A DNA stretch of 56,609 nucleotides from Dendronephthya gigantea. Its lineage: Eukaryota. Location of the stretch: the NCBI RefSeq assembly GCF_004324835.1, contig NW_021163190.1:319242-375850 (forward strand). The letters are read 5' to 3'. The notes below the pieces were generated by a model. The model saw only the letters and a program-made list of their open reading frames with translations. It made no database searches and was not told the origin of the DNA. The position numbers and the translations under genes were made by a program. Below, piece after piece: positions 818 through 55,280 of this stretch (its first letter is position 1; every line of letters begins with the position of its first letter).

Positions 818-866
818 TTATAGGTCAAAAACCAATTCACAATATGACTAACCATGGTATTTTTAG

Positions 867-1577
867 GCTAGTTCCACATACCAAACAAGTGCGATCCTTG
901 CCTCAGCGATAGACACAGCGACATTACCATTTCGACTTTCAAATGACCAGGCTACAGACATCAGCACTTTAATTGGACCCATCTCAGTGGCTGGTAGAAA
1001 GATTTCTGCATTGACTATGGGCTTACCGATTCCTCTGAGCAGCACAGGCTCTGTAAACGACATACTAAATGGACCGATGGATTTTAACATCTCCCTGACA
1101 CCAGATACAAGCCGACCTGAAAGCATTCTTGCACAAACCACTGTAGTCCGTGGAATACCAACCCATTTGCTAAAACTGGAGGAATACAATCTCGTTTCAC
1201 GAAGGTTATCTGCAATGCTTCAGTACAAAACCAACCATGGACATATTTGCCCAAGTTATGTCGTTCAGACCCCTTGTAAGTTCACCCTACAATTTCCAGA
1301 CATTTTTAAACCCTCTGTTACTCAAATTGGTTGCATTATCGAAGATTATAACCGACCAGAAGAGGTCAAAGTTAGTTCTACATCAGCAATGGCTAGTCTT
1401 GTAAATTGTGAAGAAATCTCAAGGCCTTTGGAAAGGCTGTACAAAGACACAAACAAGTTTGACGGAATGAACTATTCAGGGTTTTTAAAAGCAGGAACTG
1501 AACAGGCAGATATTGAAGACAGTAGAGAGAAACTGAAGGTCTTGGCTGAAGCATATAAGTCTGACTATGAACTCTAA
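867..1577 (+). CDS. MSTO1-like: Misato/DML1-like protein, terminal coding exon with stop TAA at 1575..1577
   Basis: Acceptor TTTTAG at 861-866. In frame with the previous exon. ASSTYQTSAILASAIDTATLPFRL matches my recollection of human SAILATALDTVTVPYRL, and the C-terminal LAEAYKSDYEL resembles LAQCYQGGDSLVD. The track's ORF 987..1577 is the tail of this exon. Confidence 0.7.
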   Translation, partial: ASSTYQTSAILASAIDTATLPFRLSNDQATDISTLIGPISVAGRKISALTMGLPIPLSSTGSVNDILNGPMDFNISLTPDTSRPESILAQTTVVRGIPTHLLKLEEYNLVSRRLSAMLQYKTNHGHICPSYVVQTPCKFTLQFPDIFKPSVTQIGCIIEDYNRPEEVKVSSTSAMASLVNCEEISRPLERLYKDTNKFDGMNYSGFLKAGTEQADIEDSREKLKVLAEAYKSDYEL

Positions 1578-2413: not shown

Positions 2414-2951
2414 GTATGGATTTTTAAAATGTGTAAATTTCAAACTTTTATGTAAAGCGGCGGTTAAAAACATTAAAAACATGATGAAAAACAATACTAT
2501 CAAGATCGGAGACGAAAAAGCATTCTGGTGAAGGGTTTATTTTGCTAAATAAAACTATTCTTTGCAGTTAGTTGTGTTAAATAAATGCAAATTCATATCT
2601 GTAGTTAACAAGAGGGTAGATTTAGCATTTCGTATTTTGAAGTTTTAATAAAAGAAAGAAACGATATAAGTAATATAAATAAAAGAAACGACATAAATAA
2701 TCTTGGGAGAAGGGAATTTGCTCATATAAAATGAAAAAATATATACAAATCTCAGGGGTACTGCCCGAAGGGAAAATCGTAATAGTTCAAATTGACTCAC
2801 ATAATATAATATAGAGCGCCATAGTTTATTATAACAGGACTGCCTTTCTTATTTTTTTCATAAGGTTGCCTCCAGTATTTTTCACACTAAAAAAATATGA
2901 GATATACGTTAGATAAAGGTAAATTTGACCGTGAAAATGATAAGAAAAGAT

Positions 2952-3440
2952 ACATCAACTATCATTGCCTGATTAAAGCATTAAAACAAGAACAAGAGTT
3001 GCATGAGAGTTGACAAGTGAGGGTTTACATGAGAGTTTCATCAACTATCATTGCTTGATCAAACGAGAACTAGAGTTGCATGAGAGTTGACAAGTGAGGG
3101 TTTACATGAGAGTTTCATCAACTATCATTGCTTGATCAAACGAGAACAAGAGTTGCATGAGAGTTGACAAGTGAGAGTTTACATGAGAGTTTCATCAACT
3201 ATCATTGCTTGATCAAACGAGAACAAGAGTTGCATGAGAGTTGACAAGTGAGAGTTTACATGAGAGTTTCATCAACTATCATTGCTTGATCAAACGAGAA
3301 CAAGAGTTGCATGAGAGTTGACAAGCGAGAGTTTACATGAGAGTTTCATCAACTATCATTACTTGATCGAACGAGAACAAGAGTTGCATGAGAGTTGACA
3401 AGCGAGAGTTTACATGAGAGTTTCATCAACTATCATTGCA
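2952..3440 (+). repeat. 77-bp satellite (tcatcaactatcattgcttgatcaaacgagaacaagagttgcatgagagttgacaagtgagagtttacatgagagtt), about 6.3 copies
   Basis: Exact period of 77 measured (copy starts 3038, 3115, 3192...). The same family occurs inverted at 11822..12330 and 19890..20085. Confidence 0.9.
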
Positions 3441-3448
3441 AAACATTC

Positions 3449-6400
3449 TCACCTTTTCGGCCGACATTTAACCATTTTCTTAATGCCTTTCGTCTTTTTT
3501 GTCACACGTTTGGCCGCTTCTTTTGTCACCTCAACTTGTTTGGCGGCTTTCTCTTTTGATTTTTCCGTATCTTCCTCAACTTGTGGGGTGCTGTCTGAAG
3601 TCTTCATCGACTGTCTTTGCGTTTTAACTTTATTCATCAACTCGTACTGTTTCCGCATCGTTTGAAAAAACTGTAATTTCCGAGAAACGAAGAACGCTTC
3701 GTCGACATCTGGTCCCATTATCCAAGCATAATGATTTTCGAGTTTCTCCAAAACTTTTTTCTTGTTCTTTGTCTTCCAAGGCGTCTTTTCTTCCTCGATA
3801 CTTTCCTTGACTTGGGCAATTCGCCCTTGTAAAATTTCTGTCCATTCAGCTAAAGAAAGTTCTTCTTTCTGCTGCGTCTCTTTCCCCGGTGACGTGGAGC
3901 GCGCAATCTCCAGGGGTTGAATCTCGTGGAGCTGGGGGTCATTTTCCTGGCCATTTTTGTCGTAGGTTTTTTCTTCCCAGGGTTGAGTTGGGCTTGGTTT
4001 TCTCACCGAGGGTTGAATATCGTGGGGGTTTTTCTCCGAGGGACTTAACACTGGGGAGTTAGGATCTGCTGTTGTTATTATGATACGCGAATTACTGTCT
4101 TTTGTGACGAGAAGCAAGTTATTAAGATCCTTAGGCGGACATATCGATGTCTGTGTTGTCGTTTTGGGCACGTCATCAGTAGTGAAATCGCCATCTTGAA
4201 TTCCGCCTTCTTCCGACAATTTCCGACGTTTGTACTGCTCCGAAACAAGTTTCGTAGAATCATGGAACTTGTACGATTTCTGACCCGAGCTTTTTCGCTT
4301 TCGATTTTCGTCGCCGGATTCTCGGTTTTCCTCGGCCAAAAATCCCGTCTCTAATTCTTTCCAGGAATTTCGCCTGATGTCAGGAGAGACAGTTGAATTT
4401 TCACTACAACTATCCTTTGTCGCGTTACTCTGCTCAAGTTTCAGCGAATAAGTCTCCCACTGCTGCGATACAGGTTTCTTATCACGTGAGCCGACTATGC
4501 TGTTCACGTGAGCTTCGGACTTTGCTCCCTTGGGTGTTGCATCCTTTTTGACAACGCTAAAATGAAGTACATTCAAATCATCGCCGAGCTCGGGACTCTC
4601 CGTCTTGTGTATTACATCATCTTCTTCGGGTATGACGATGTATTTTATACCAGAGTCCTTTGCAGGTTTTTCTGAGCCCGCACTCCCGCATTGCAGCAGT
4701 TGCTTCAATTCGTTGTCCAAACCAATGACCTGAGGTTTTAGCAAATTTTTCAATTCACTTTTCGAGCCCAAAGACTCCTGTTTCAGCGGTTGCTTGACCT
4801 CCGGTGACTTCTTCACACCGACCACGATTCCGGTCGGTTTTGGACCAACTTTAGGTAGTTTCACGACGGTCTGGTTGCTGTCGGTTCCAGGCTTCTCAGT
4901 GAACTCGGTGTCATATTTGCGACATAAAAGTTCGTCACGTGGCATTGTCTTCAAAGGCTTGCTGTCATCCAGGCAGTCTTGAATACTCGATTTAAATTTT
5001 TCAACAAATTCGTTCTTGGTAATGCAATTCTCTCGGTTTTTTAATCCGTGTGACGAATATCTCGGTTCATAGGTAAGACTCCTAGATCGTTCACTTTTGA
5101 ATTCCGGCCTGCTTTCCGTCCGATCATATTCCGAAAGAGATCGTATCAACTTCGGCATGCCTTCGTAGTTTCTCGTCGGCTTTTGGTATTCTCCAGAGTT
5201 TACAGAACCGCTCCTTTCCGGGAAGGACTGGCGACTGGAAGAAATGTCCATTCTCTGATCGAAACTCAGGCTTCCATCATTGGCGTGGTTCTTGGAAACA
5301 TTTGACAACATTCTGCGAATTTTTCTCGCAGCATCCTGGAGAGAATTCCCAGCGATTTCTGCGGATCCCGCGACAAAATACTCCGATTTATCATCAAGAC
5401 ACCTCTTAAGTCCCCTGCTCTCATCCGACAACAACTGCTCACTCATGATGGCACTCTGTGTACCTGAATGTCCCGCACTTTCCCGCTCGTATAGAACAGA
5501 CCGATAACTCGTGCTCAGCCCATTCCCCCCATGCTCGCGGTTCGTTCCCAAGCCATTCTGCTTGTAGTTCGACGTGGTCACCTCTTGACTATCATTCGTA
5601 TTATTGTTGAAATCATAGGAATCTCTTCTGACCCTACTCGGCCCAGTTTCATCAATCGTCTTACGGCCGAGTTTTTCGCTTTCTAACCGAACGGACTGTT
5701 CCCCGGGTGCTTTAACCCCGGTAATAACACAGGCACTTTCACCATCGCTATTACGAGATGGATTTAAATCCACATTCTCCCGTAGAAAATCGTCGCTACC
5801 TCCATCTATTCTGTAAACCGGACTGGCAGCTGTGAAAACATCTCCATTTTCGTCGCTGGAAAGCGGTGAAGATATCTTCAATCCTTCGTCTTCCGAATCT
5901 GATATGACCACAACGGTTGGTGAACTACGACGCTTTTTTCTCCGTTGCGCCTTTCGCTGTTCAATAATGTCCGCAACTTTCATAGCTAACAAAGTCGAAT
6001 TCTTCACATCACCGGCATTTAGTCCCTTCGAATTAGGTTCCTTCGAATTTGGTCCCCCCGAATAAGGTTCCCTTGAAACAGGTTCCTTCGAATTCGTTTC
6101 CCCTGAATAAGGTTCCCTCGAAATAGGTTCCTTCCAAATAGGTTCTTTCGAAATAGGTTCCTTCGAATTTAGTTCCTCCGAATTAGGTTCCTTCGAGTTT
6201 AGTCCCTTCGAATTTGGTCCCTTCGAATAAAGTTCCTTTAAGTTCTTTGGTGCCTCGACATTTCGCACCACGGAGCAAAGTTTCTCGATAGATTGACTTG
6301 ATGCTCTTGTGTACCCGGCATTTGTGTCCTCGGAGTTTCGTACTACGGGATTGTGTCCCTCGGTAGCAGATGTTCTTATCTCGGTATTTCTTGTATTTGA

Positions 6401-6691
6401 ACTATATTTCGCGTAGGTCCAATCTTCCCGGGAGGTGTAAGTGCCGGTAGTAGAAGTTTCAGAATATTGTGAGCCAACGTGACCGGTACTATATCTCCTC
6501 ATATCACTGGTGGGTTGAATATTTGCCACATATTTCCCCGCTTGGATTGTGGACTGGGGTTTCGAGGTGAGGGTTTGGCCTATGGGTTGTGAGTGTGTCT
6601 CGCGATGGGGTAGAGTTTGGCCTATGGGTTGTGGGTGTGTCTCGCGATGGGGTAGAGTTTGGCCTATGGGTTGTGGGTGTGTCTCGCGACG
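3449..6691 (-). CDS. Large single-exon gene, 3' part (frame A). Low-complexity Ser/Lys/Glu-rich protein with (NSKEP)n repeats, a lysine-rich C-terminus and a predicted helical C-terminal segment. Function unknown.
   Basis: 1026-codon open frame in AT-rich DNA. The frame stays open upstream of the listed GTG 'start', through the 42-bp repeats, reading PHRETHPQPIGQTL repeats, up to the 1-nt deletion at ~6690. Confidence 0.55.
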   Translation of the reverse strand, partial: RRETHPQPIGQTLPHRETHPQPIGQTLPHRETHSQPIGQTLTSKPQSTIQAGKYVANIQPTSDMRRYSTGHVGSQYSETSTTGTYTSREDWTYAKYSSNTRNTEIRTSATEGHNPVVRNSEDTNAGYTRASSQSIEKLCSVVRNVEAPKNLKELYSKGPNSKGLNSKEPNSEELNSKEPISKEPIWKEPISREPYSGETNSKEPVSREPYSGGPNSKEPNSKGLNAGDVKNSTLLAMKVADIIEQRKAQRRKKRRSSPTVVVISDSEDEGLKISSPLSSDENGDVFTAASPVYRIDGGSDDFLRENVDLNPSRNSDGESACVITGVKAPGEQSVRLESEKLGRKTIDETGPSRVRRDSYDFNNNTNDSQEVTTSNYKQNGLGTNREHGGNGLSTSYRSVLYERESAGHSGTQSAIMSEQLLSDESRGLKRCLDDKSEYFVAGSAEIAGNSLQDAARKIRRMLSNVSKNHANDGSLSFDQRMDISSSRQSFPERSGSVNSGEYQKPTRNYEGMPKLIRSLSEYDRTESRPEFKSERSRSLTYEPRYSSHGLKNRENCITKNEFVEKFKSSIQDCLDDSKPLKTMPRDELLCRKYDTEFTEKPGTDSNQTVVKLPKVGPKPTGIVVGVKKSPEVKQPLKQESLGSKSELKNLLKPQVIGLDNELKQLLQCGSAGSEKPAKDSGIKYIVIPEEDDVIHKTESPELGDDLNVLHFSVVKKDATPKGAKSEAHVNSIVGSRDKKPVSQQWETYSLKLEQSNATKDSCSENSTVSPDIRRNSWKELETGFLAEENRESGDENRKRKSSGQKSYKFHDSTKLVSEQYKRRKLSEEGGIQDGDFTTDDVPKTTTQTSICPPKDLNNLLLVTKDSNSRIIITTADPNSPVLSPSEKNPHDIQPSVRKPSPTQPWEEKTYDKNGQENDPQLHEIQPLEIARSTSPGKETQQKEELSLAEWTEILQGRIAQVKESIEEEKTPWKTKNKKKVLEKLENHYAWIMGPDVDEAFFVSRKLQFFQTMRKQYELMNKVKTQRQSMKTSDSTPQVEEDTEKSKEKAAKQVEVTKEAAKRVTKKTKGIKKMVKCRPKR
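6000..6245 (-). repeat. 15-nt coding tandem repeat (ggttccttcgaatta; about 16 copies) encoding (NSKEP)n-like pentapeptides inside the large gene
   Basis: Direct observation. The period is a multiple of 3 and preserves the frame. Confidence 0.85.
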
Positions 6692-6740
6692 GGTAGAGTT
6701 TGGCCTATGGGTTGTGGGTGTGTCTCGCGATGGGGTGGAT
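6574..6740 (-). repeat. 42-bp coding minisatellite, 4 units (tttggcctatgggttgtgggtgtgtctcgcgatggggtagag). The third unit is 41 bp.
   Basis: Unit starts at 6574, 6616, 6658 and 6699. The unit at 6658..6698 has gcgacgggtag instead of gcgatggggtag. Confidence 0.9.
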
Positions 6741-7800
6741 TTTCAACCATTTCATTTCGGTGGACGAGACCTGGTCGTTCATGCGAACCGGTGGACAATG
6801 ACCGATGGCGGAGTACCTCCAGATTATGATTAGAGGCCAGTGGCTGGTGTGCGGGTTGTTCTTGCCCGGAAGCAGGTGGATACCATTCCCTTGCAGCACG
6901 ATCGTGACTTTGGCGCCAAACTTTTAGATGAAAGTCCCTTGAGAATCTATCTGTGGAAGACGGCATGGATAACTGACGCGCGTATTGTCGAGCTCTTGCG
7001 CCGTTTTCCGAGTACGGTACGACGTTCTGACGAAGTTGGATACCGCTTTCCGATTGTTGGCCGATACTTTGCCGATGTTGTGTTAGATCTTGCGTGCCTA
7101 GTACGATGTTTTCTTGATACTGAACGGCGTTCTTCGGGTGCTGTACGATGTTCTGCCGAAGTGGGACGACGTTTTCCGGATGGGACCGAAATGTGCCGGT
7201 GGAGTTTCGCCTTATCGTTGCTTCCTGCGTGCGTGGCGATAGATTCGCTGCGTGTCGAGGGTATTGCATTTGCATATTGTGCGCTTTGGATATCGTAGGA
7301 GGAATTGGACGGCCATTGTAAAAGGGGGGAGAGGGAACATTTGTTTTTCCCGTTTGAGGGGAGATAACCCGCTGTTCTGTTGAATAACGGCTTGGTGTGT
7401 GAATCAACGCTGGAGGGGACCTTTGTACGGTCGGATAATGTTGCGTAGTTGCTGCCCGTTGGTTGGAATACCCGGTATCGAACCTTTCCAGGGACAAATT
7501 TCCGACGGGGTATCGTCTCTGACGAGGACGTCCGGTGGGATATTTCCTCCCGGTAGGGGAACTATTTTCGACAAGGTGCGTTTCCCCGGTATGTCGTTTT
7601 CCCCCGGTAGGGTTTGTTTCCCCGCTACGTACTTTTTCGCCGGATTTCTTAGGAACAGATGAGACCGTGACGATTTTCGGCATGGAAGGATGGTCGAAGA
7701 CGAGTCCTTGTATTTCTTTGCCATCTGGTTGCTTCCTTGATCGGCATAAAACAACGCTTTTTGATTTCCGTTGGATATTCGCTTCACCGTTCATGTCTGA
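6664..7800 (-). CDS. Same gene, 5' part (frame B), ending in ...ENPPHRETHPQPIGQTLP then a frameshift and stop. Strong 3' splice site ccccattttattttcag immediately before ACATGAACGG at ~7800.
   Basis: 387-codon ORF, Pro/Gln/Ser/Thr-rich. Its repeat peptide is identical to the one read in frame A downstream of the deletion. Confidence 0.5.
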   Translation of the reverse strand, partial: SDMNGEANIQRKSKSVVLCRSRKQPDGKEIQGLVFDHPSMPKIVTVSSVPKKSGEKVRSGETNPTGGKRHTGETHLVENSSPTGRKYPTGRPRQRRYPVGNLSLERFDTGYSNQRAATTQHYPTVQRSPPALIHTPSRYSTEQRVISPQTGKTNVPSPPFYNGRPIPPTISKAHNMQMQYPRHAANLSPRTQEATIRRNSTGTFRSHPENVVPLRQNIVQHPKNAVQYQENIVLGTQDLTQHRQSIGQQSESGIQLRQNVVPYSENGARARQYARQLSMPSSTDRFSRDFHLKVWRQSHDRAAREWYPPASGQEQPAHQPLASNHNLEVLRHRSLSTGSHERPGLVHRNEMVENPPHRETHPQPIGQTLPVARHTHNP

Positions 7801-7887
7801 AAATAAAATGGGGAAAAATTTTCGCAAATTTTGATAAATTATGATAATATTAGAAGACTTTAAATTATAGTGCTTTCAATGATAGCG

Positions 7888-9275: not shown

Positions 9276-10227
9276 AAAGGCCTAATCCCAACACGGTTGA
9301 TAGAAATGTGAAATAGAAAATTCCGTACAAAGAATGCTGACCAAATATACCAAGACAATTGTCAATATCACTAAGATTATAAACTCACAACCGGCAATAC
9401 TTCATTGAGACAACAACACCTACATGGCGCAGGTTAATATCAAAACGATGTCAGATTTCTACAACATCTTTGGTCGAGAGCTTCTTGGAGTAAAGGAATT
9501 TGGTTTGTCGACGTGTACGTTTAAAATAATCACAAGTCGCAAACATTGATATGTTAATATACTGTAAAAGTTTCCGGTATGGTACCAGAATACTCTAAAT
9601 GATTATACACAATGGACAATGAAGTCTTTGGAGTTTCTTCACGCGCCGTGGAGCGAGGTAAGTGTGTGATTATTTAGTTCATTTATCAAAGCTTTCCCGT
9701 CCGGAAATGTGGCTACTTCCATGGCAAGTATAGAAAACATATTCTGATAAACACAATAATACCATCTGCAATTCTTATTCGTCCATAAATATACTATTCT
9801 TTCCGAAAAAGCGAACATATTTCAGGTAGCCCCATTGTAGAGTGATTAGACTATACTCTCTCTATACTATCAAGAGCATTTAAATCAGAGATCGTAGCTA
9901 AAAAAATCACACAATTTTAGAGAAATCCTTCAAAGAGGAACTTCTGGTTTCGAGTGATCTGTGACGTAAAGACCGTAATGACAAAAAAAATACAAAAAAA
10001 ATATTTAAATCATCAAATATTTTCGGTCAAACACTCGAAGATCGTTTAACCAGTTTATATACCTTGCATTATGTTGTGAACGAAGTTTTAAACAGTATTT
10101 AATGGTTGCTAAACACCAAACGACAAAGGTTTTTTCAAAATATAATCGGGATATAATGAATACAGAAGTATATAGCTTCGATTCAAGGGTAGGTACAGTT
10201 GCTTACTTGCTAAATCAAGTGTATTGT

Positions 10228-10598
10228 GAGATCAGTGGTGCTATATCCAGTTATTATTGGATCAGTGGTACTATATCCAGTTATTATGAGATCAGTGGTG
10301 CTATATCCAGTTATTATGAGATCAGTGGTGCTATATCCAGTTATTATGAGATCAGTGGTGCTATATCCAGTTATGAGATCAGTGGTGCTTTATCCAGTTA
10401 TTATGAGATCAGTGATGCTATATCCAGTTATTATGAGATCAGTGGTGCTATATCCAGTTATTATGAGATCAGTGGTGCTATATCCAGTTATTATGAGATC
10501 AGTGATGCTATATCCAGTTATTATGAGATCAGTGGTGCTATATCCAGTTATTATGAGATCAGTGGTGCTATGTCCAGTGTGATATGAGATCAGTGGAA
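10228..10598 (+). repeat. 30-bp satellite (gagatcagtggtgctatatccagttattat), about 12 copies
   Basis: Direct observation. The long ORFs here are artefacts of the repeat. Confidence 0.9.
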
Positions 10599-11821: not shown

Positions 11822-12330
11822 GAAGCAATGATACTGATAGTTGATGAAACTCTCATGTAAACTCTCGCTTGTCAACTCTCATGCAACTATTGTTCTCGTT
11901 TGATCAAGCAATGATAGTTGATGAAACTCTCATGTAAACTCTCGCTTGTCAACTCTCATGCAACTCTTGTTCTCTTTGATCAAGCGATGATAGTTGATGA
12001 AACTCTCATGTAAACTCTCGCTTGTAACTCTCATGCAACTCTTGTTCTCGTTTGATCAAGCAATGATAGTTGATGAAACTCTCATGTAAACTCTCGCTTG
12101 TCAACTCTCATGTAACTCTTGTTCTCGTTTGATCAAGCAATGATAGTTGATGAAACTCTCATGTAAACTCTCGCTTGTCAACTCTCATGCAACTCTTGTT
12201 CTACTTTGATCAAGCAATGATAGTTGATGAAACTCTCATGTAAACTCTCGCTTGTCAACTCTCATGCAACTCTTGTTCTACTTTGATCAAGCAATGATAG
12301 TTGATGAAACTCTCATAAACTCTCGTAAAT
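11822..12330 (-). repeat. 77-bp satellite, inverted array
   Basis: Reverse complement of the unit at 2952..3440. Confidence 0.9.
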
Positions 12331-18883: not shown

Positions 18884-18952
18884 AGAAGTATATAGCTTCC
18901 AAGCCTTCCATTCAAGGTGGGTAGGTAAAGTTGCTATATCAAGTGTATTGTG

Positions 18953-19625
18953 AAATCTGTGGTGCTATACCCAGTTATTATGAGATCAGTGGTGCTATAT
19001 CAAATTATTATTAGATCAGTGGTGCTATATCCAGTTATTATTGGATCAGTGGTGCTATGTTCAGTTATTATGTGATCAGTGGTGCTATATCAAATTATTA
19101 TTAGATCAGTGGTGCTATATTCAGTTATTATGAGATCAGTGGTGCTATATCCAGTTATTATTGGATCAGTGGTGCTATGTTCAGTTATTATGTGATCAGT
19201 GGTGCTATATCAAATTATTATTAGATCAGTGGTGCTATATTCAGTTATTATGAGATCAGTGGTGCTATATCCAGTTATTATTGGATCAGTGGTGCTATGT
19301 TCAGTTATTATGTGATCAGTGGTGCTATATCAAATTATTATTAGATCAGTGGTGCTATATTCAGTTATTATGAGATCAGTGGTGCTATAACTAGTTATTA
19401 TGAGATCAGCGGTGCAAAACTAGTTATTATGAGATCAGTGGTGCTATATCCAGTTATTTTGAGATCAGTGGTGGTATATCCCGTTATTATAAGATCAGTG
19501 GTACTATTTCTAGTTATTATGAGATCAGTGGTGCTATATACAGTTATTATGAAATCAGTGGTGTTATATCCAGTTATTATGAGATCAGTGGTGCTATATA
19601 CAGTGCAATATGAGATCAGTGGAAT
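18953..19625 (+). repeat. 30-bp satellite, paralogous array of about 22 copies
   Basis: Same unit and same flanks as 10228..10598. Confidence 0.9.
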
Positions 19626-19889: not shown

Positions 19890-20085
19890 TCTCGTTTGAT
19901 CAAGCAATGATAGTAGACGAAACTCTCATGTAAACTCTCGCTTGTCAACTCTCATGCAACTCTTGTTCTCGTTTGATCAAGCAATGATAGTTGATGAAAC
20001 TCTCATGTAAACTCTCGCTTGTCAACTCTTGTGCAACTCTTGTTCTCGTTTGATCAAGCAATGATAGTTGATGAAACCATGGTTT
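19890..20085 (-). repeat. 77-bp satellite, paralogous shorter array
   Basis: Same unit, preceded by the same ~130-bp unique segment as 11640..11770. Confidence 0.9.
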
Positions 20086-24494: not shown

Positions 24495-24988
24495 TATATG
24501 AATATAAGTGTCGTTGCAGCTACACCCTATATATTCTTCCATGGCCTCTGGGCAATACTGACAATCAAACGAGACCTGGTAGCTATATTATGAAATAAAC
24601 TAGTCCTTTATTTGTTACATAAAATCAATGAAAACTTCATTGTTCACTTCAACCCGTCACTTCCACCGACGAATTAGTTGGATAATTGAAGTAATAATGA
24701 ACCGTAATTAGATGCTAATTGCTCGCATTAAAGTTTGTAAAATGATTCATTTTGTCACAACGTTCGGCGATCGACAACGAACAGTCAGTTGAAAGCGAAT
24801 ATCTCCATTCAATATAATCTCTTTGTTGAACCGAAAATTTTCAATACGATTTCAAGTTTTTCTTGGCAAGTTTTATTTGCTCTTTCGTACGCGAAAAAAT
24901 TGACAAGTTTTCCTTGACAAGGAGCCTTGTTCAAAAGCTAGTCATGACTTCAAAAGCTTTTCAACAGGCAAAAATGCTCTTGTAACCG

Positions 24989-25500
24989 CGCAGTAGGGAA
25001 CAGCGCAGTAGGGAACAGCGCAGTGGGGAACAGCGCAGTAGGGGACAGCGCAGTGGGGAACAGCGCAGTAGGGGACAGCGCAGTAGGGAACAGCGCAGTA
25101 GGATACAGCGCAGTAGGATACAGCGCAGTAGGGAACAGCGCAGTAGGGAACAGCGCAGTAGGGAACAGCGCAGTAGGGAACAGCGCAGTTGGGAACAGCG
25201 CAGTAGGGGACAGCGCAGTAGGGAACAGCGCAGTAGGGAACAGCGCAGTGGGGAACAGCGCAGTAGGGGACAGCGCAGTAGGGAACAGCGCAGTAGGGAA
25301 CAGCGCAGTAGGGAACAGCGCAGTAGGGAACAGCGCAGTAGGGAACAGCGCAGTAGGGAACAGCGCAGTTGGGAACAGCGCAGCAGGGAACAGCGCAGCA
25401 GGGAACAGCGCAGCAGGGAACAGCGCAGCAGGGAACAGCGCAGTAGGGAACAGCGCAGTAGGGAACAGCGCAGTAGGGAACAGCGCAGTAGGGAACAGCG
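24989..25500 (+). repeat. 15-bp minisatellite (gcgcagtagggaaca), about 34 copies
   Basis: Copy A has a single copy of the motif at the orthologous site (~13530). Confidence 0.9.
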
Positions 25501-27074
25501 CAACAATCTTCGTGCCAATAGAACAGGTTTGTTTTCTTTTGAGGTTTTATCATTTCTGTTTGTTTGGAGATTCGGTCGTATACTCATTTTATCATCCCTC
25601 GTTTTATCGTAAATATACTCCTATTATTGTAAAACTTGTCAAGAAAAAAATGGTCAATTTTTTCGCGTAAACACAAGCAAATAAAACTTGTCAAGGAAAA
25701 CTTGCCCGTCTGTACGGGGCTTTATCAAAATATTCACGCCCACAATCTAACGTTAAATCTTGCCGCAGCCGTAAATGATGGTCGTACTAAACATTAAAAA
25801 AAAAGCCGGCGCGCACGAAAAATGTCACTGGTGAGCATTGGTGTCATGGTCAACCATTCATTTCAATGCATTGAAATGGTGTTAACAGGACAAGCTCACT
25901 ATCATCTGAGGTAAAGACCTCGCGAGGCTGTTAGTTCAGCAAGTTACTCTCGTGTGCGGATCGTTTTCGTGAGGAACTCGCCTCGAGAAGCAAGTTTCTC
26001 ACGTTTGTGGATAGATTTCGGGCGCACACTAGGCAACTAGTGACACGACTCGTGTGCACCGACATTTAAGGCATCAGATCATGATTGACTAACCTTCTGG
26101 CTAATTGTGGTATACTTGTCCTCGCTATTTCGTACTCTTTTATCTCCAATCTGCAAAAGCATTGAAAAAAATGTCACGTACAATTTCCCATTCGGTGTTT
26201 TTTATGGAGTATTGTCTACGCTTTCTGTCGGTGGAATGAATGTTCACAACCGCATCACCAGAATGGTATCAGATGACGTCGAGAAATTATATGAGCCTTC
26301 TGGTATTCGCCTTGTCTCGGTTATATTTGTATAATGAAGAAGGTTGGATTCCTTGGTATGTGAGAAGATAATTTAGAATAGCTTAAGGCGTTTAAAAAGG
26401 CTGCTTTCGCAGGAAGTTTTGCAAGAAGTGTACAGTCCTTCCAACCGGAACTGGTCAGTGAAAATGTACAGACGAGTTTATACATAAGACAACCTAATCA
26501 ATTTAAGGTTTTTGGGCAAAGGTGTTTGTACAAAACTGACTATTAAAATATTGTTTGTCGGTTCCATAATAAACGAAAGGCAGAACTTTAATATTATATG
26601 GGGAGATGCTTTGCGCCTGCATAGTTCTTTAAAATTTGTGCCTGAGTTCTGGGACGTTGAAAATGGCCTTTTTTCGCTATTAGGCAGCAGTTCTTCACTA
26701 TAATGAATAATAAAACCATACCACAAATATAGTAAAGTGCGATCTTGAATTTTTACATTTTTATTGTGTACATGCATTTACCGTATCTATTCGTTTGAGG
26801 TCCACCGAACGACTAAATTCGGTATTCAATATTTGAATCCGAAATGAATTTGTATCATTCACATAAGAATCGGGACATGAAAAGTTCAAAGTCTGAAACA
26901 GGGCTTGCGAGCGTGCATGCGAGAGCTTGAATTTGTAGCCTTTGAGCGCCGCCGCAAGTTCTAAAAATTTAAACAGCACCGCTGTTCTGAAACGACTAAA
27001 TACGGTATATAATACTTGAATCTCAAATGATTTCAACTTGCCCAACTTTTCTAGATTTAAATATTTACGCTTAG

Positions 27075-29630: not shown

Positions 29631-30240
29631 GTCTAGAACTGTCTAGAACTGATAGAGCTATCCAGTAGAAATAAAGTTAGTTTAGTTTAGGTTTCCTCCT
29701 GTAGTAACACTGGATCAATAAGAGATGATCCTTACTGGACCTCTAGGAAGAACAGTTTAGAACTGATAGAGCTATCCAGTATAAATAAAGTTAGTTTAGT
29801 TTAGGTTTCCTCCTGTAGTAACACTGGATCAATAAGAGATGTTCCTTACTGGACCTCTAGGAAGATCAGTTTAGAACTGATAGAACTATCCAGTATAAAT
29901 AAAGTTAGTTTAGTTTAGGTTTCCTCCTGTAGTAACACTGGATCAATAAGAGATGATCCTTACTGGACCTCTAGGAAGAACAGTTTAGAACTGATAGAAC
30001 TATCCAGTATAAATAAAGTTAGTTTAGTTTAGGTTTCCTCCTGTAGTAACACTGGATCAATAAGAGATGATCCTTACTGGACCTCTAGGAAGAACAGTTT
30101 AGAACTGATAGAGCTATCCAGTATAAATAAAGTTAGTTTAGTTTAGGTTTCCTCCTGTGGTAACACTGGATCAATTACTGGACCTCTAGGAAAAACAGTT
30201 TAGAACTGATAGAGCTATCCAGTATAAATAAAGTTGGTTT
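29631..30240 (+). repeat. 114-bp satellite, about 5.4 copies
   Basis: Period counted as 114. Unit: cagtttagaactgatagagctatccagtataaataaagttagtttagtttaggtttcctcctgtagtaacactggatcaataagagatgatccttactggacctctaggaagaa. Confidence 0.9.
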
Positions 30241-45400: not shown

Positions 45401-46198
45401 CTAATAATTATATTTAACAGTGATAAAATTACTAAATCGTTCTGTATTTGTTTGTAGTTGTCGGCTTCCGTGTTCATGCCTCAAATTATATTCATTGGTA
45501 GAAACGCTAGTCTGTCTTTCAATTGCATCACGAGGGGGGTTAATTGTAACATTATCTTCTTTTAATTTATTTATAAATAATTTGCAAGAACTATCTCTCC
45601 GTGACCATAAAGTTTGGAGTCCAATATGGTTCAGTGCGTTTGCATACGACAAATCTGGGATAATAATACGTAGAGCTCTTTTTTGAATGGATTCGATCAT
45701 GTCCGACTGCTTCTTCGTTAACGCTGACCATGCTGGGTACTCCAAACAAGGCCTAATAAAGGTGGAATATATAGTTACGAGATTCTTGACACTTAGTCTG
45801 GCTTTTTTTAATTGTCGCAAAGCATAAAGCCTAGAATTCGATTTTTTGATGACATAATCAACGTGATCAAACCAAGAGAGATCATCCCTCAACTATACTC
45901 CAAGCAATTTAACCGATTGTACCAATTCACCGTCAATATAGATTGGATTCCCGTACGGGAGTTCATATTGGAGAAAGGATATACTCATATCTTTACACTT
46001 CTTAGAGTTTAATTTCATTCCTCTGGCAGATGCAAACTGGGAAATTTCATTTACGAGAATGGGCATAAGGCTGGGGGAGCAACGGTGAATAACTTCCAGG
46101 GCGCTTGTGTCATCAACATACTTAATTCGCGCGTTCCAATCTTTCAGAAGGGAATTCAACCATGGTCGAGTTCGCCGGAAAACGACTAATTCAACCAT
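45401..46198 (-). pseudogene. Fragment of a non-LTR (LINE) reverse transcriptase, with one in-frame stop
   Basis: Has YVDD (the YXDD motif), then GMKLNSKKCKDM, then ...KLLGV*MRDDLSWFDHVDYVIKKSNSRLYALRQLKK. From my recollection of LINE RTs, the usual consensus there is LGVxIDxxLSWxxHI...RLxxLRxLK. The two listed ORFs are contiguous in one frame across a stop at 45893-95. Confidence 0.7.
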
Positions 46199-46778: not shown

Positions 46779-46832
46779 TAACTCGACCATGGTCGAGTTC
46801 GCCGGAAAACGACTAATTCGACCATGGTCGAG
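46779..46832 (+). repeat. 35-bp satellite, the segment between the MITE and the copia element
   Basis: Same unit. Confidence 0.9.
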
Positions 46833-47154
46833 TGTTAAAGTATGCTCTATTATATTCCAAATATTCCAATATATATGTATCAATCAACTGTAAATAGATT
46901 TAATTTAGATTTATGAGTGATCAAATGATTCCATAGATTCCATAGATGCAAGTGTAGTAAATGTTTCTTTAATGAAAGCCAAATATGGTAACCAAATGTA
47001 AAATGAAATGTTATCCGTCCTAAAGAGATTATCATGTAACCACTTATATATAGATGTAACTTTCCTTGTATACATCAGAGTGAATAAAACTGTGTAACCC
47101 TAAAGTTGTGCTGTGAATATAAAGGAGTGGCAAATGGCTACCCAAAACTCAACA
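46833..47154 (+). repeat. copia 5' LTR
   Basis: About 2 mismatches over 322 bp against the 3' LTR. Confidence 0.9.
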
Positions 47155-47353
47155 GGTTATGGGCCCAGGAGAGCTCTGGTCTTCGATGGAAACGAATCGA
47201 AGTACGAATTATGGGAGGTAAAGTTTTTATCCTTTATGCGGATCCAAAAACTTTACAACTATTTTTGTGCCTAGCAGCGATGAGCGTGAGCTAGATTAGT
47301 CGAAGAATGCCGATGCCTTCGCCGAACTTGTACAGTGTTTAGATGACCGAAGC

Positions 47354-50300
47354 TTGTCCCTAGTCATAAGGGAGGCAAAAGATGAGGGTCGAAAGGCTTT
47401 AACAGTGCTGAGAGAGCACTACCAAGGAATAGGAAAACCCCGAATTATAGCCCTGTACACCGAACTTACTTCACTGAGAAAGGGGGAAAGCGAGTCAACA
47501 ACGGACTACATCATACGAGCGGAGACCGCGGCGACAGCGCTGAAAGCAGCAGAGGAAATAATAAGCGACGGCTTATTAATTGCAATGGTTTTGAAAGGCC
47601 TTCCTAGGAACTATAAAACATTCTCTACTGTGATAATCCAACGAGAAAAGCAGATGACATTCAGCGAATTCAAAATAGCCCTGCGAAACTACGAAGAGAT
47701 TGAAAAGAGTTGCCATGGTACGGAAGGCAAAGACAACGTGATGTATGCCGCCAAGACGAAATTCGACGGAAAATGCTTCAAATGTGATAAGAAAGGTCAT
47801 AAGAGTTCCGAATGTTGGCTAAAGAGCGAAAAATGGTGTGCCAAATGTCGAACCAAGACCCACAATACAAGAGATTGTAGAGCCGCAAAGAAGGACGCAG
47901 CGAAGCTTATCAACGGACAAGTGAAGAATCAAGATTTGGATGAACATTCATTCGCATTTACGTTAAAAGATGGTAAAGGTAGGAGTACGAAGAATTCGAA
48001 GCTTCTCGTGGACACTGGGGCGACCAGCCACATAATTAATGATAGGTCTAGGTTTGTAAGCTTTGACAAGAACTTTGATCCGAACAGTCACTTTATAGAA
48101 CTTGCCGATGGAAGCAAGGCTAACGTAGTTTTAGGGAAGGGAAATGCAATGGTTAAATTGTTTGATGTAAGGGGTAATGTACAAAATCTAATGCTAAGCG
48201 ACGCACTTTATATACCGTCCTACAGTCAAAATATTTTTTCAGTTTCGGCAGAAATAGGTAGAGGAGGATCGGTTGCTTTAGGAGAACAGGTAAGTAAATA
48301 CACTACAGCTGAAGGTCAGGTATTTGAGATAGAAGAGAGAGAGCGTTTGTACTATTTAAATAGTATCTCTTCTTCGTGTAACAATGCTACCTCCATTAAT
48401 GAGTGGCACAGGATTTTAGGCCATTGTAACTTTGGAGATGTGCGTAAATTAGAGCAGGTAGTCAAAGGGATGAAAATCATAGACCACAGCGAGAAAGATT
48501 GTGAAGTATGCATTCAAGGAAAGATGTGTCAGAATAGAAACCGAGAGCCAGATCAGAGAGCTAAAGCACCTTTAGATTTTGTCCACTGTGACTTGGCAGG
48601 GCCAATTGAGCCCGTTGCCAGAGACGGATTTAAATATGCATTGTCTTTTATAGACGATTATACAGGTATCAACATGATATATTTCTTAAAGCGAAAGAGC
48701 GACACTTTAGAAGCCACAGAAAAATTTTTGGCCGATGTTGCGCCTTATGGTAAAGTTAAAAGGATACGAAGCGATAATGGTGGTGAGTTTACGAGTCAAG
48801 AATTTAAATCTCTCTTACGAAAGCAGTCAATAAGACACGAGACGAGTGCCCCGTATTCCCCTCACCAAAATGGAACTGCAGAAAGAGCGTGGCGAAGCCT
48901 TTTTAGCATGGCTAGGTGCTTGCTATTGGAGGCAAAACTACCAAAACGGTTGTGGACCTACGCTGTGATGGCTTCAGCCTACATAAGAAATAGATGCTTC
49001 AACCAACGCTTAGAGAAGACACCATTTGAGGCGTTGACAGGTAAGAAACCAAATTTAAATAATATGCATGTATTCGGCACAACACGCTATGCTTTTTTGC
49101 AGAACACCAAGAAAATAGACGCAAAGAGCCGTAAAGGTATATTTATAGGGTACGACAGAGGTAGCCCATCTTACTTGATATACTATCCGGAATTAGACAA
49201 GATAGAAAAGGTACGTTGTGTCAAATTCATTGACAACTTCCAAGGCAAAGACAATAAACTCAACGATCTTGATGAGTTTGTACCCGCCAGAAAACCTTCG
49301 AGTACTAGCAATGAAAACCCCAAAATGCCGAGTACAGTTGAGGAGAGCTCGAATAATCTCGAAACAATCAGCGAAAATGTAACAAACAACACCGAGGTGG
49401 TTGCCGAGGGAGATAGGTATCCAACAAGAGTTCGCAATAAGCCAAATTATTTCGATCAAAGCAAATTAGATGACACATTAGGTGAGAATGTTAATTACAC
49501 TGTTGATTATTGCTATAGAGTTGCGAACATTCCAGTGTGCTATAAACAAGCACTTGAGTTGCCTGAGGCAAACAAATGGCAAAAGGCAATGGAAATTGAG
49601 ATGAAAGCGTTGACAGATAATGACACTTTTGATTTAGTACCGCGACCTAAGGATAGACAGGTAGTGGGGGCAAAGTGGGTTTACACTATAAAAACAAATC
49701 AAGAGGGAGAGGAAAAATATAAAGCTAGATTTGTAGCGAAAGGGTATTCTCAAGTTTCAGATATAGATTACCAAGAAACGTTTGCACCAACTGCACGCAT
49801 GAGTTCGATCCGAATGTTATTACAACGTGCCGTGCAAAACGACATGATTATTCACCAAATGGATGTGAAAACAGCATACCTTAATGCGCCAATCGACTGC
49901 GAAATATATATAGAACAACCTGAAGGTTTTGAAAAGCGAAATGATAGCGGTGAAACGTTAGTTTGTAAGCTGAAAAAGTCGCTATATGGTCTAAAACAAA
50001 GCGGCAGGAATTGGAATAATCTACTCCATCAATATTTGATTAACGAAAACTTTATTCAATCTCTTGCAGATCCATGTGTGTATGTGCGTACAATAGATGA
50101 TAAACGATGTGTGATCGTAATCGTTTGGGTCGACGATATCATAATCGCCTCGAGTGATTCAAATTCACTACAGAGCGTGAAAAAGTCTCTTAAAGAAAGG
50201 TTTAAAATGACCGACCTAGGGATTCTAAAATGGTTTTTAGGCACTGAATTTCAATGCAGTGAAAACACAATTAAAATGAGTCAAACCCGGTACATTGAAA

Positions 50301-51088
50301 AGATTCTTGAGAAATTCAAAATGACCGATTGTAAGCCAAAGCCGACGCCGTGTGAGTTAGGAGTAGACAAAGTTTTGGAAGTGGAATCTCCTGAAATGGA
50401 GGACCCCGGGCTTTATAGAGCTATAGTAGGTAGTCTCATATATGTAATGACTGGCACTAGGCCAGATCTGTGTTACATCGTGACAAAATTGTCACAGAAA
50501 ATGTCAAAACCAACCCAGGCAGATTTAACTAAGGCAAAGCACGTTTTGAGATATCTAAAAGGTACTTCAAAATTTGGTCTAACGTTCACAAAGTCCATTA
50601 ACCCCCTCATTCTTCAAGGTTTTTGCGATTCAGATTGGGGAGCATCTATCGCAGATAGACGGAGTATAACAGGATACAACTATCAACTAGCGCAAAAGGG
50701 ACCGTTGATATCATGGAAGAGTCGCAAACAGCCGACAGTGGCACTATCCACCTGTGAAGCGGAATATATTGCATTGACAAACGCGATGCAAGAAGCAAAA
50801 TTTCTGAAACAACTCTGCATCGACATGAAGGTAAGTATACATGAAGGTAAGGCTTTCATAAAGATAGATAACCAGGGAGCGATGAATCTGGCGAAGAATC
50901 CTATTCATCATCAGAGAACAAAACATATAGACATCAGGTACCATTTCATTAGGGAAGAAGTGAAGGAAGGACGAGTTAGTTTAGAGTACGTTTCAACAGA
51001 GGAAAATATTGCAGACATATTTACAAAGCCAGCCAGTAAAATAAAATTAGAAAAATTTAAAGAGACCATATTAGGTAAGTATACATAG
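47354..51088 (+). CDS. copia Gag-Pol polyprotein, 1244 aa, uninterrupted
   Basis: CCHC knuckle CFKCDKKGHKSSEC. Protease LVDTGATSH. Integrase HHCC (HRILGHC...CEVC) and D,D,E (HCDLAGP, FIDDYTG, ...PHQNGTAER). RT ...VWVDDIIIA. RNase H DSDWGAS...TGYNY...STCEAEYIAL. Confidence 0.92.
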   Translation: MSLVIREAKDEGRKALTVLREHYQGIGKPRIIALYTELTSLRKGESESTTDYIIRAETAATALKAAEEIISDGLLIAMVLKGLPRNYKTFSTVIIQREKQMTFSEFKIALRNYEEIEKSCHGTEGKDNVMYAAKTKFDGKCFKCDKKGHKSSECWLKSEKWCAKCRTKTHNTRDCRAAKKDAAKLINGQVKNQDLDEHSFAFTLKDGKGRSTKNSKLLVDTGATSHIINDRSRFVSFDKNFDPNSHFIELADGSKANVVLGKGNAMVKLFDVRGNVQNLMLSDALYIPSYSQNIFSVSAEIGRGGSVALGEQVSKYTTAEGQVFEIEERERLYYLNSISSSCNNATSINEWHRILGHCNFGDVRKLEQVVKGMKIIDHSEKDCEVCIQGKMCQNRNREPDQRAKAPLDFVHCDLAGPIEPVARDGFKYALSFIDDYTGINMIYFLKRKSDTLEATEKFLADVAPYGKVKRIRSDNGGEFTSQEFKSLLRKQSIRHETSAPYSPHQNGTAERAWRSLFSMARCLLLEAKLPKRLWTYAVMASAYIRNRCFNQRLEKTPFEALTGKKPNLNNMHVFGTTRYAFLQNTKKIDAKSRKGIFIGYDRGSPSYLIYYPELDKIEKVRCVKFIDNFQGKDNKLNDLDEFVPARKPSSTSNENPKMPSTVEESSNNLETISENVTNNTEVVAEGDRYPTRVRNKPNYFDQSKLDDTLGENVNYTVDYCYRVANIPVCYKQALELPEANKWQKAMEIEMKALTDNDTFDLVPRPKDRQVVGAKWVYTIKTNQEGEEKYKARFVAKGYSQVSDIDYQETFAPTARMSSIRMLLQRAVQNDMIIHQMDVKTAYLNAPIDCEIYIEQPEGFEKRNDSGETLVCKLKKSLYGLKQSGRNWNNLLHQYLINENFIQSLADPCVYVRTIDDKRCVIVIVWVDDIIIASSDSNSLQSVKKSLKERFKMTDLGILKWFLGTEFQCSENTIKMSQTRYIEKILEKFKMTDCKPKPTPCELGVDKVLEVESPEMEDPGLYRAIVGSLIYVMTGTRPDLCYIVTKLSQKMSKPTQADLTKAKHVLRYLKGTSKFGLTFTKSINPLILQGFCDSDWGASIADRRSITGYNYQLAQKGPLISWKSRKQPTVALSTCEAEYIALTNAMQEAKFLKQLCIDMKVSIHEGKAFIKIDNQGAMNLAKNPIHHQRTKHIDIRYHFIREEVKEGRVSLEYVSTEENIADIFTKPASKIKLEKFKETILGKYT

Positions 51089-51184
51089 GTTCATAATTGC
51101 GCATATAATTTTAAAGCGATGGCCCGCCCTGCTGCACGCCATCAAATAAATAATTTACTATAGAACATAAAGAGCAAGTGGGGG

Positions 51185-51506
51185 TGTTAAAGTATGCTCT
51201 ATTATATTCCAAATATTCCAATATATATGTATCAATCAACTGTAAATAGATTTAATTTAGATTTATGAGTGATCAAATGATTCCATAGATTCCATAGATG
51301 CAAGTGTAGTAAATGTTTCTTTAATGAAAGCCAAATATGGTAACCAAATGTAAAATGAAATGTTATCCGCCCTAAAGAGATTATCATGTAACCACTTATA
51401 TATAGATGTAATTTTCCTTGTATACATCAGAGTGAATAAAACTGTGTAACCCTAAAGTTGTGCTGTGAATATAAAGGAGTGGCAAATGGCTACCCAAAAC
51501 TCAACA
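51185..51506 (+). repeat. copia 3' LTR
   Basis: See the 5' LTR. Confidence 0.9.
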
Positions 51507-55265: not shown

Positions 55266-55280
55266 GTATTGTACTGTATG

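Follow-up and report, generated by a model that had tools for sequence, protein, structure and literature searches.

Two adjacent open reading frames in the soft coral Dendronephthya gigantea as one conserved gene interrupted at a coding minisatellite

Two long open reading frames (ORFs) lie side by side on the minus strand of a contig from the soft coral Dendronephthya gigantea, and RefSeq files them as separate uncharacterized genes, LOC114538332 and LOC114538312. Are these two genes, or one gene broken within a short tandem repeat, and if the latter, does the break belong to the animal or to its assembly? The window analyzed here is the whole stretch of 56,609 nucleotides that surrounds these ORFs. 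We conclude that positions 7794..2829 of its minus strand are almost certainly a single protein-coding gene. A literature search found no paper mentioning the identifiers LOC114538332, LOC114538312 or LOC114544730, the last of which is a protein model from a second D. gigantea contig.

Gene structure across the frame break

Minus-strand frame A runs without interruption from a stop at 7878 down to another at 6666..6664. Frame B is bounded by stops at 6745..6743 and 3451..3449 and overlaps frame A across a 41-bp minisatellite unit (6658..6698). With one base inserted at the lesion in this unit, the open frame spans 1,475 codons and encodes 1,448 aa from the first ATG at 7794, which is likely to be the translation start rather than the TTG at 7827. 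By our estimate, a frame that stays open over more than 1,000 codons would arise by chance in DNA of such composition with a probability of about 1e-20 or less; whatever the value of this estimate, status as a gene is settled by the matching orthologues. The parts of the gene are as follows.

6664..7794, minus strand: upstream half, the CDS of RefSeq LOC114538332, 376 aa (MNGEAN...QTLPVARHTHNP, then stop), with a translation exactly that of P0041
3453..6742, minus strand: downstream half, frame B open from 6742, RefSeq LOC114538312 (P0037, 1,035 aa)
2887..3452, minus strand: last intron, 566 nt, GTGAGA...TTTTTTTAG, located by rebuilding the RefSeq product
2829..2886, minus strand: terminal coding mini-exon of 19 codons, (S)VKNTGGNLMKKIRKAVLL and stop, with which the RefSeq product is rebuilt exactly

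The CDS of LOC114538312 starts at the ATG at 6502..6500 and leaves the long exon at the donor AAAAG/GTGAGA, with 3453 as the final exon base; the stop at 3451..3449 is that of the unspliced frame. The downstream exon accounts for 1,016 aa identical to P0037, and the complete RefSeq CDS is rebuilt exactly once the 3' mini-exon is spliced on. Both D. gigantea RefSeq products, P0041 and P0037, are thereby reconstructed exactly from window coordinates. The last intron also contains a 77-bp minisatellite (2984..3439). Rfam and tRNA scans of the window found no RNA genes.

The original prediction, made from the DNA letters, had described one gene in a single exon of about 1450 codons, restored by one base, with a downstream frame open up to a deletion in the repeat. 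The fusion is reproduced by a one-base insertion, which gives a 1,448-codon ORF from ATG 7794, and frame B does reach past the deletion to the stop at 6745..6743, overlapping the 41-bp unit. The peptides written for the two frames across the repeat agree with our translations, which end in ...NPPHRETHPQPIGQTLPVARHTHNP and a stop in frame A and read ...RRETHPQPIGQTLPHRETHPQPIGQTLPHRETHSQPIGQTLTSKPQ... in frame B. Full-length colinear orthologues uphold the single gene but the single exon has to be given up, as the long exon is followed by the 566-nt intron and the 19-codon terminal exon. The intact product would be about 1,466 aa long, largely disordered and rich in S, K, E and P.

Orthologues and protein family

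The repaired product is colinear with the closest orthologue, P0001, at 62% identity and 100% coverage, and matches P0002 and P0004–P0007 at 32–40% identity and 99–100% coverage; its upstream half aligns with the N-termini of P0001–P0008. An uninterrupted ORF, colinear across the break, is present at six orthologous loci (L001, L002, L004, L005, L006 and L007), and the Xenia sp. RefSeq protein XP_046849664 (LOC124443176) contains both halves. Orthologue comparison had been named as a check on the prediction of one broken gene, and these single ORFs support it. The locus L003, from another octocoral assembly (GCA_949826985.1), has its own one-base insertion in the orthologue, at about position 9535. 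Compared with the 98.7%-identical and intact contig L007, the insertion falls in a PTGxK repeat region. Recurrent truncation in other species, suggested by cluster members of 1,119 and 1,180 aa, was rejected since the DNA holds intact full-length ORFs; the short members therefore reflect start-codon choices of the gene caller.

Xenia sp. LOC124443176 and Paramuricea clavata CAB4015547 are true orthologues of the same length class, with colinear motifs and the C-terminal helical domain. The Paramuricea gene resembles that of D. gigantea also in its misato neighbour (contig L002) and in its 3' mini-exon tail, the annotated protein ending in SVKNSQGGMMKKIRKAVLS, similar to the terminal mini-exon product. 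Unlike both, D. gigantea alone has expansions of a 14-aa repeat (four copies) and a 5-aa repeat (about 14 copies), together with the frame break. The neighbouring gene provides a synteny anchor.

840..1577, plus strand: final exon of a convergently oriented misato-like gene (tblastn)

This exon has 53% identity (tblastn) to an ORF in L004 located between the orthologue and the misato N-terminal exon. Genes with Misat_Tub_SegII/Tubulin_3 are found downstream of the orthologue, on the opposite strand, in L002, L003 and L004, and the neighbourhood with a convergent misato-like gene is conserved. Five conserved segments were located in the protein, the first three by motif mapping in the upstream half.

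7722..7666, minus strand: conserved N-terminal motif GKEIQGLVFDHPSMPKIVT
7419..7390, minus strand: conserved N-terminal motif SPPALIHTPS
6945..6904, minus strand: conserved N-terminal motif FSRDFHLKVWRQSH
5885..5920, minus strand: motif PTVVVISDSEDE (VVVISDSEDE), from the family alignment
3596..3853, minus strand: C-terminal helical domain, EWTEILQGRIAQV...QYELMNKVK, conserved more strongly than any other part of the family (alignment A2)

The VVVISDSEDE motif includes the invariant family columns V629, I631, S632, D633, S634 and E637 and fits, as a pattern match only, V/I-V/I-x-V/I followed by S/D/E. It looks like a putative SUMO-interaction motif with an acidic/serine tail, presumably comparable to the PML/PIAS type with an acidic/phospho-serine tail. 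Alignment A2 of the C-terminal domain has 43 invariant columns, and EWTEILxGRIxQVxESIExExTPWKxKNKxKVL...QYELM is present in the D. gigantea product. A search of 1.84 billion proteins with the A2 profile returned only 12 cluster representatives, every one at E < 1e-30. The AlphaFold2 model of this domain has four helices, with 43 residues at a pLDDT of at least 90; Foldseek comparison of the model with the PDB gave generic helical-bundle matches only (E of at least 0.36), and sequence-profile searches of the PDB with the whole protein and with the C-terminal domain returned nothing significant. A Pfam family assignment was rejected, the only match being a sub-threshold, low-complexity one to Extensin_1. 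The gene belongs to a small unannotated family so far seen only in octocorals and a few relatives. A taxon-restricted, mostly disordered protein with a SUMO-interaction-like motif, a conserved helical C-terminal domain and in-frame lineage-specific expansions is of mild biological interest and not surprising.

The repeat lesion and the absence of decay

Two coding repeats distinguish the D. gigantea gene, one of which contains the break.

6573..6743, minus strand: 42-bp coding minisatellite, 4.1 copies, encoding (P)HRETHPQPIGQTL (Tandem Repeats Finder and unit sequences)
6658..6698, minus strand: 41-bp unit, the frameshift site; on the plus strand it has T>C at 6690 and, at 6691..6693, GGG in place of GGGG
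6025..6238, minus strand: another coding repeat restricted to this lineage, 14.3 copies of a 15-bp period encoding (S)KEPN-type pentapeptides (Tandem Repeats Finder), fully in frame

Tandem Repeats Finder scored the first array at 307, with 94% matches and 1% indels. Units 6574..6615, 6616..6657 and 6699..6740 are each 42 bp long, which bears out the predicted three full units and the 41-bp unit at 6658..6698. The short unit reads GCGACGGGTAGAG and its siblings GCGATGGGGTAGAG; on the minus strand CCCCAT is replaced by CCCGT, and the unit there is CCCGTCGCG. The original prediction had seen a single-base deletion. A one-base loss in the G run is indeed present (three instead of four), but it is accompanied by T>C at 6690, so the lesion consists of two changes and not one. 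The one-base shortfall at 6690..6693 leads to the stop at 6666..6664 and is disabling by comparison with the intact orthologues.

The closest orthologue (P0001, locus L001) has one copy of the 14-aa unit (PHHEAHPQTIGPTL) and reads through the junction; D. gigantea has four, and the 42-bp expansion is specific to its lineage. There the 14-codon segment was amplified to four copies, presumably by replication slippage. Because one unit of the deposited sequence lacks a base, the two gene parts lie in different frames, which is why annotation pipelines call two genes. In the alignment, the 15-bp repeat corresponds to a 71-residue insertion relative to P0001.

Indels relative to L001 are multiples of three in 19 of 20 cases, the sole exception being 125 nt (3x42-1) at the repeat. 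Estimates of dN/dS are 0.38–0.55 for the upstream half and 0.35–0.47 for the downstream half. Frame B comprises 1,098 open codons (about 1,080 beyond the lesion) with no stop or further frameshift, and 5.1% of the possible substitutions in it would create a stop. A bound derived from stop-creating substitutions and frameshifting indels over frame B limits neutral divergence since any inactivation to at most about 0.5–1.8% (95%), and dS to L001 is 0.33–0.45. Because orthologues are intact, indels are in frame, constraint acts on both sides and no other disruption is present, the break must be of very recent origin or spurious. A unitary (non-processed) pseudogene likewise has a disabling frameshift where its relatives are intact, yet here the lesion is single and constraint is unrelaxed in either half, so that the gene would be at most at the very first step of this process.

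Assembly error, real allele and weaker alternatives

A fresh pseudogene, a repeat-length error of the assembly and a frame difference between alleles were the options proposed at the outset; this was the right set, and the evidence favours the assembly error. We consider it probable that the two ORFs are one conserved gene and that the PacBio RS II/FALCON assembly left a consensus error uncorrected at the lesion, comprising the missing base and perhaps also the neighbouring T>C. The D. gigantea genome was assembled from PacBio RS II data with FALCON 0.3.0 (PMC6447388). Its correction step replaced bases only where short reads called a homozygous or a non-reference heterozygous variant, and the text of PMC6447388 names no long-read consensus-polishing step. 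Short-read variant correction works poorly in near-identical tandem units such as those of 6573..6743, and the lesion is in part a G-run contraction within such 42-bp units. Reads from a unit truly identical to its neighbour would align better 42 bp away than across the erroneous unit, so the error would never show as a homozygous variant and would survive all correction rounds.

The protein model LOC114544730 points to a comparable site within the same gene.

3755..3760, minus strand: A6 run (GAAAAAAG) inside the C-terminal domain, where A5 would explain model LOC114544730

This model (P0012, 149 aa, second D. gigantea contig of 17,956 bp) follows the +1 frame of the window to ...EQEK and then the true frame, VLEKLENH.... 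It probably represents part of an allelic copy of this gene, and the protein model implies that this copy would carry A6>A5 in the best-conserved domain. Were the contig allelic and the two breaks both real, the sequenced colony would be left with no intact version of a gene on which purifying selection acts throughout the family.

Several observations count against an artefact. The lesion joins a substitution to a one-base loss and is not a pure homopolymer miscount, and T>C would give the 41-bp unit its own sequence, which should have made it easier for short reads to map there and correct it. Twelve other tandem arrays in the window (about 6 kb) contain 28 gap events and 206 substitutions, and four of them have no gaps; there is no obvious excess of one-base indels, so the assembly has no gross burden of errors in its repeats. 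The D. gigantea genome is highly heterozygous, and its assembly amounts to 103.6% of the estimated size (PMC6447388). With such heterozygosity, real loss-of-function alleles are expected in some genes. The insertion in L003 beside the intact L007 fits either errors or real segregating frameshifts in a repeat-rich gene. Exact-pattern and protein-guided scans of public metagenome contigs found no second D. gigantea sequence across the repeat, and a protein search with the junction region matched the RefSeq N-terminal model alone.

The frameshift may instead belong to the animal as an allele of very recent origin, carried in the heterozygous state by the sequenced colony or newly fixed, which we regard as possible but unlikely. 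It would be a TG>C-type lesion in one unit of a slippage-prone coding minisatellite and would encode a 376-aa N-terminal fragment ending in VARHTHNP, leaving the downstream 1,080 codons untranslated and undecayed, as a loss-of-function allele or fresh pseudogene. The combined substitution and deletion, less typical of simple homopolymer miscalls, agree with such an allele, as do the high heterozygosity, the ordinary indel-to-substitution ratio of the other arrays and the independent frameshift in L003 next to the near-identical L007. However, the absence of a second disabling change in 1,098 codons and the equal constraint in both halves would put the age of this allele below about 0.5–1.8% neutral divergence. 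Six other loci (L001, L002, L004–L007) have an intact gene, a second real and allelic break would leave the animal without an intact copy, and the assembly and correction method leaves precisely such sites uncorrected. With one ancestral gene, the lesion, the lack of decay and the assembly method as established points, we infer that an artefact is most likely, rather than a real allele.

Residual one-base indels are known to split or truncate gene models in long-read drafts (e.g. PMC12007338), and apparent frameshifts have been removed by allele-specific assembly (PMC8445201). Such split models share with the D. gigantea gene a one-base length error (a probable one in this gene), a low-complexity or homopolymer context and two adjacent same-strand ORFs annotated as two genes, and their usual signature is likewise intact orthologues with no further decay. 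The D. gigantea lesion differs in that it includes a substitution and lies in a minisatellite unit and not in a long homopolymer. A counterpart among real alleles is the MUC1 VNTR, where insertion of a single cytosine in one 60-bp unit forms a frameshift allele (PMC5843638, PMC9039432). In both genes, a one-base change in a short G/C run of one coding-minisatellite unit shifts the downstream frame at a site that is hard for short reads. The MUC1 array comprises 20–125 units, and its frameshift, documented as a dominant disease allele, makes a toxic neo-protein, whereas the D. gigantea array has only four units, a shifted frame that stops after 8 codons, and at most a putative allele.

If the lesion is an uncorrected assembly error, as we favour, the finding is correct but ordinary. 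Its value lies in annotation: the entries LOC114538332 and LOC114538312 should become a single locus or carry a flag that marks them as one disrupted gene. Errors or real variants in short coding tandem repeats escape short-read correction and inflate first-generation long-read coral gene counts.

All explanations other than an assembly error or a real recent allele together receive only a small share of our confidence. It is improbable that the 41-bp unit is real and the repeat acts as a polymorphic frame switch, in which slippage and point mutation within the gene's young coding minisatellites would repeatedly generate two kinds of allele, one for the full-length protein (about 1,466 aa) and one for the 376-aa N-terminal module alone. 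The difference between L003 and L007 is a similar event. Were this so, such alleles would persist in highly heterozygous coral populations through a functional N-terminal fragment or separate downstream expression, and gene fission would have been caught in progress.

Completed fission, as in the RefSeq models, is a shade less credible still. Separate 376-aa N-terminal and 1,035-aa C-terminal proteins would be made, the latter from ATG 6502 (MRRYSTGH) by its own transcript or by reinitiation. Both halves retain open frames and conserved motifs, RefSeq lists two protein-coding genes, and by our own reasoning the truncating stop is not expected to trigger exon-junction-dependent decay because the last intron lies downstream of both stops. 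However, no orthologue is split in this way, many upstream AUGs precede ATG 6502 on a shared transcript, and the split point is an out-of-frame repeat unit and not a new stop with a promoter. Paired RefSeq models are the pipeline outcome at any frameshift and are not independent evidence.

Restoration of the frame after transcription, by a small cryptic intron in the repeat or by ribosomal frameshifting, is the least probable source of a full-length protein. An open frame is recovered by 36 formal GT/GC..AG pairs, each 2 mod 3 in length (e.g. donor CAG/GTCTCG at 6770 with acceptors CCCATAG/G at 6664, 6622 or 6580), and the T>C change introduces a coding-strand GT. However, these donors are weak, introns of 41–290 nt would remove residues that orthologues conserve (PGLVHRNEMVENPPH...), and orthologues have no intron at the repeat position. 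Programmed -1 frameshifting was rejected too, as the frame overlap from 6750 to 6666 contains no canonical X XXY YYZ slippery heptamer and the frame change is conserved in no relative, the orthologues reading through in one frame.

Elsewhere in the window, a copia LTR pair differs by 2 mismatches and no gaps; neither this pair nor the twelve tandem arrays are decisive for the indel rate of the assembly. In the copia gag region the disruption goes beyond one indel.

A short unit in a 42-bp coding minisatellite

Tandem Repeats Finder and the unit sequences bear out the predicted 42-bp coding repeat with one short unit. The array occupies 6573..6743 (4.1 copies, 94% matches); three units measure 42 bp, whereas that at 6658..6698 measures 41 bp, with GCGACGGGTAGAG in place of the GCGATGGGGTAGAG of the other units. 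These differ by T>C at 6690 and by three Gs rather than four at 6691..6693. The lesion had been described as a single-base deletion, and the loss of one base in the G run holds, but the substitution accompanies it. Translations agree with the prediction that both frames read the repeat. The upstream minus-strand frame is open from 7878 to a stop at 6666..6664 (peptide at the break ...NPPHRETHPQPIGQTLPVARHTHNP and stop), and the downstream frame, frame B, is open from 6745 to a stop at 3451..3449 (peptide RRETHPQPIGQTLPHRETHPQPIGQTLPHRETHSQPIGQTLTSKPQ...); their overlap is exactly the 41-bp unit. Adding one base yields an open frame of 1,475 codons, or 1,448 amino acids from the ATG at 7794. 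The proposed fusion of about 1450 codons thus stands in length but not as a single exon, since a terminal exon follows a 566-nt intron. The observation of the original prediction is confirmed.

One gene listed as two

The two halves of the gene are listed in RefSeq for D. gigantea as two uncharacterised genes, and correcting this annotation would be a useful outcome. These models and the neighbouring gene are:

7794..6664, minus strand: LOC114538332 (P0041, 376 aa), upstream half, rebuilt exactly from the window
6502..3453 and 2886..2829, minus strand: LOC114538312 (P0037, XP_028415262.1, 1,035 aa), downstream half, rebuilt exactly from the window
840..1577, plus strand: misato-like gene (last exon), downstream of the gene and convergent with it

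The last intron, seen via the RefSeq model, has the donor AAAAG/GTGAGA and the acceptor TTTTTTTAG/T. The terminal exon of LOC114538312 comprises 19 codons, and a similar tail is present in the annotated Paramuricea clavata protein.

The one-gene reading is supported by full-length homologues and by orthologous DNA. The repaired protein is colinear with the homologue P0001 (62% identity, 100% coverage) and, over the full length, with P0002 from Paramuricea clavata (40%) and P0004–P0007 (32–34%); P0008 is more distant. In Xenia, one protein (RefSeq XP_046849664) likewise spans both halves. Comparison with related species, which had been suggested as a check, showed a single ORF unbroken across the junction at six orthologous loci (L001, L002, L004, L005, L006 and L007). 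Truncation in database entries of 1,119 and 1,180 aa was considered and rejected, as these lengths reflect start-codon choices of the gene caller. A convergent misato-like gene also lies downstream of the orthologue in three other octocoral contigs or species.

In the closest orthologue the junction is read straight through. The 14-residue unit (PHHEAHPQTIGPTL) occurs there once, against four times in D. gigantea, and the KEPNS-type 15-bp repeat found in about 14 copies at 6025..6238 of the window is absent. Hence both repeats are young, lineage-specific, in-frame expansions in a disordered region.

Age and origin of the frame break

Of the 20 gaps in a nucleotide alignment with L001, the closest orthologous locus, 19 have lengths divisible by three, and the one that does not is the 125-nt (3x42-1) gap at the repeat. 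Upstream of the break dN/dS is 0.38 (NG86) or 0.55 (YN00), and downstream it is 0.35 or 0.47, at dS of 0.33–0.45. Frame B runs for 1,098 codons free of stops, some 1,080 of which lie downstream of the lesion, and 5.1% of possible substitutions in the gene sequence would create a stop. When frameshifting indels are also allowed for, these figures put neutral divergence after any inactivation at less than about 0.5–1.8% (95%). The lesion must therefore be of very recent date, if it is real at all. At such a site, genuine slippage mutations are to be expected, and so are consensus errors that cannot be corrected.

We regard an assembly error as the probable, if far from certain, explanation. The assembly was built from PacBio RS II reads with FALCON 0.3.0 and corrected in three rounds by replacing homozygous and non-reference heterozygous variants from self-mapped Illumina reads (PMC6447388). 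If the true unit matches its neighbor exactly, short reads would fit better 42 bp away than across the erroneous unit, which would then never be called as a homozygous variant, and the error would survive correction. Heterozygosity of the genome is high, and the assembled sequence amounts to 103.6% of the estimated size (PMC6447388). A second contig of 17,956 bp in the same assembly carries LOC114544730, which implies a second, probably allelic, copy of the gene. Its protein (P0012, 149 aa) is a chimera, following the window's +1 frame to ...EQEK and the true frame from VLEKLENH. As judged from this protein model, A5 instead of the window's A6 at 3755..3760, in the most conserved domain, would explain the chimera. 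Should this contig represent the other allele, and should both breaks be real, the colony would have no intact copy of a gene under family-wide purifying selection; an error is then likely in one break or in both.

A real, recent frameshift allele is possible, though rather unlikely. Against an artefact, the lesion is more than a pure homopolymer miscount, T>C should have rendered the unit mappable, and the window's other tandem arrays are ordinary (28 gap events vs 206 substitutions). Locus L003, the orthologue in a different octocoral assembly (GCA_949826985.1), has its own one-base insertion at about 9530..9540 in a PTGxK repeat region (CCGGAGGAAAG vs CCGG-GGAAAG in L007), splitting the ORF. 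The ORF is intact in L007, which comes from another dataset, is 98.7% identical and also differs by one 21-bp unit (VRGLNPP). We counted this against an artefact, yet it fits errors or segregating alleles alike.

True gene fission in D. gigantea is very improbable. Restoration of the frame after transcription is hardly credible: 36 formal GT/GC..AG pairs (length 2 mod 3) could bring it back, but only with weak donors and at the cost of residues that orthologues conserve; relatives have no intron at this position, and the stretch shared by both frames holds no canonical slippery heptamer. The case is an ordinary one of a conserved gene seemingly split in a first-generation long-read assembly.

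Protein family and other features of the window

The repaired protein matched no Pfam family and nothing in a PDB sequence search. Searched against 1.84 billion proteins, a profile of the C-terminal domain matched no more than 12 cluster representatives, with octocorals (D. gigantea, Xenia) as the only named organisms. AlphaFold2 predicts four helices in this domain, with 43 residues at pLDDT >= 90; a fold search with the model gave no significant match. Invariant motifs include GKEIQGLVFDHPSMPKIVT, PTVVVISDSEDE, KPTGIVVG and SQQWE. VVVISDSEDE looks like a SUMO-interaction motif that carries an acidic/serine tail. In combination with the several basic clusters present, this putative motif could tentatively point to a disordered nuclear protein of scaffold type.

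The window is eukaryotic in character, at 38% G+C with sparse ORFs, a copia retrotransposon and many minisatellites, and its tRNA and Rfam scans gave no matches. Its other features are:

46832..51506: young Ty1/copia LTR retrotransposon
47354..51088: copia pol ORF (RVT_2, rve, gag_pre-integrs, Retrotran_gag_2)
45401..45892, minus strand: ORF of 163 aa that matches Pfam ALKBH8_N over a short stretch (E = 7e-6)
24942..25670, both strands: overlapping ORFs of about 200 aa from a 15-bp tandem repeat
2984..3439, 11835..12325 and 19890..20077: 77-bp minisatellite family
10208–10596 and 18932–19622: 30-bp dispersed minisatellite family
29635–30241, 32097–32391, 32792–33216 and 55279–55486: 114-bp dispersed minisatellite family

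The 323-bp copia LTRs (46832–47154, 51184–51506) align without gaps and with two mismatches. At about 47130–47270, the gag N-terminus is encoded in another frame, and stops in all frames separate it from the main ORF. Since a 35-bp satellite flanks both ends (46153–46609, 51507–51732), the element may have inserted into that array. The ALKBH8_N-matching ORF lies just upstream of the element and may be a mobile-element fragment. The ORFs at 24942..25670 are probably not a gene, because their Pfam matches are only low-complexity; the underlying repeat (24984..25502) has 34.6 copies with 95% matches. Minisatellite content is unusually high, with single arrays of 32, 25 and 17 bp in addition to the dispersed families. 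Of the 77-bp arrays, that at 2984..3439 sits within the gene's last intron, and that at 11835..12325 is oppositely oriented.
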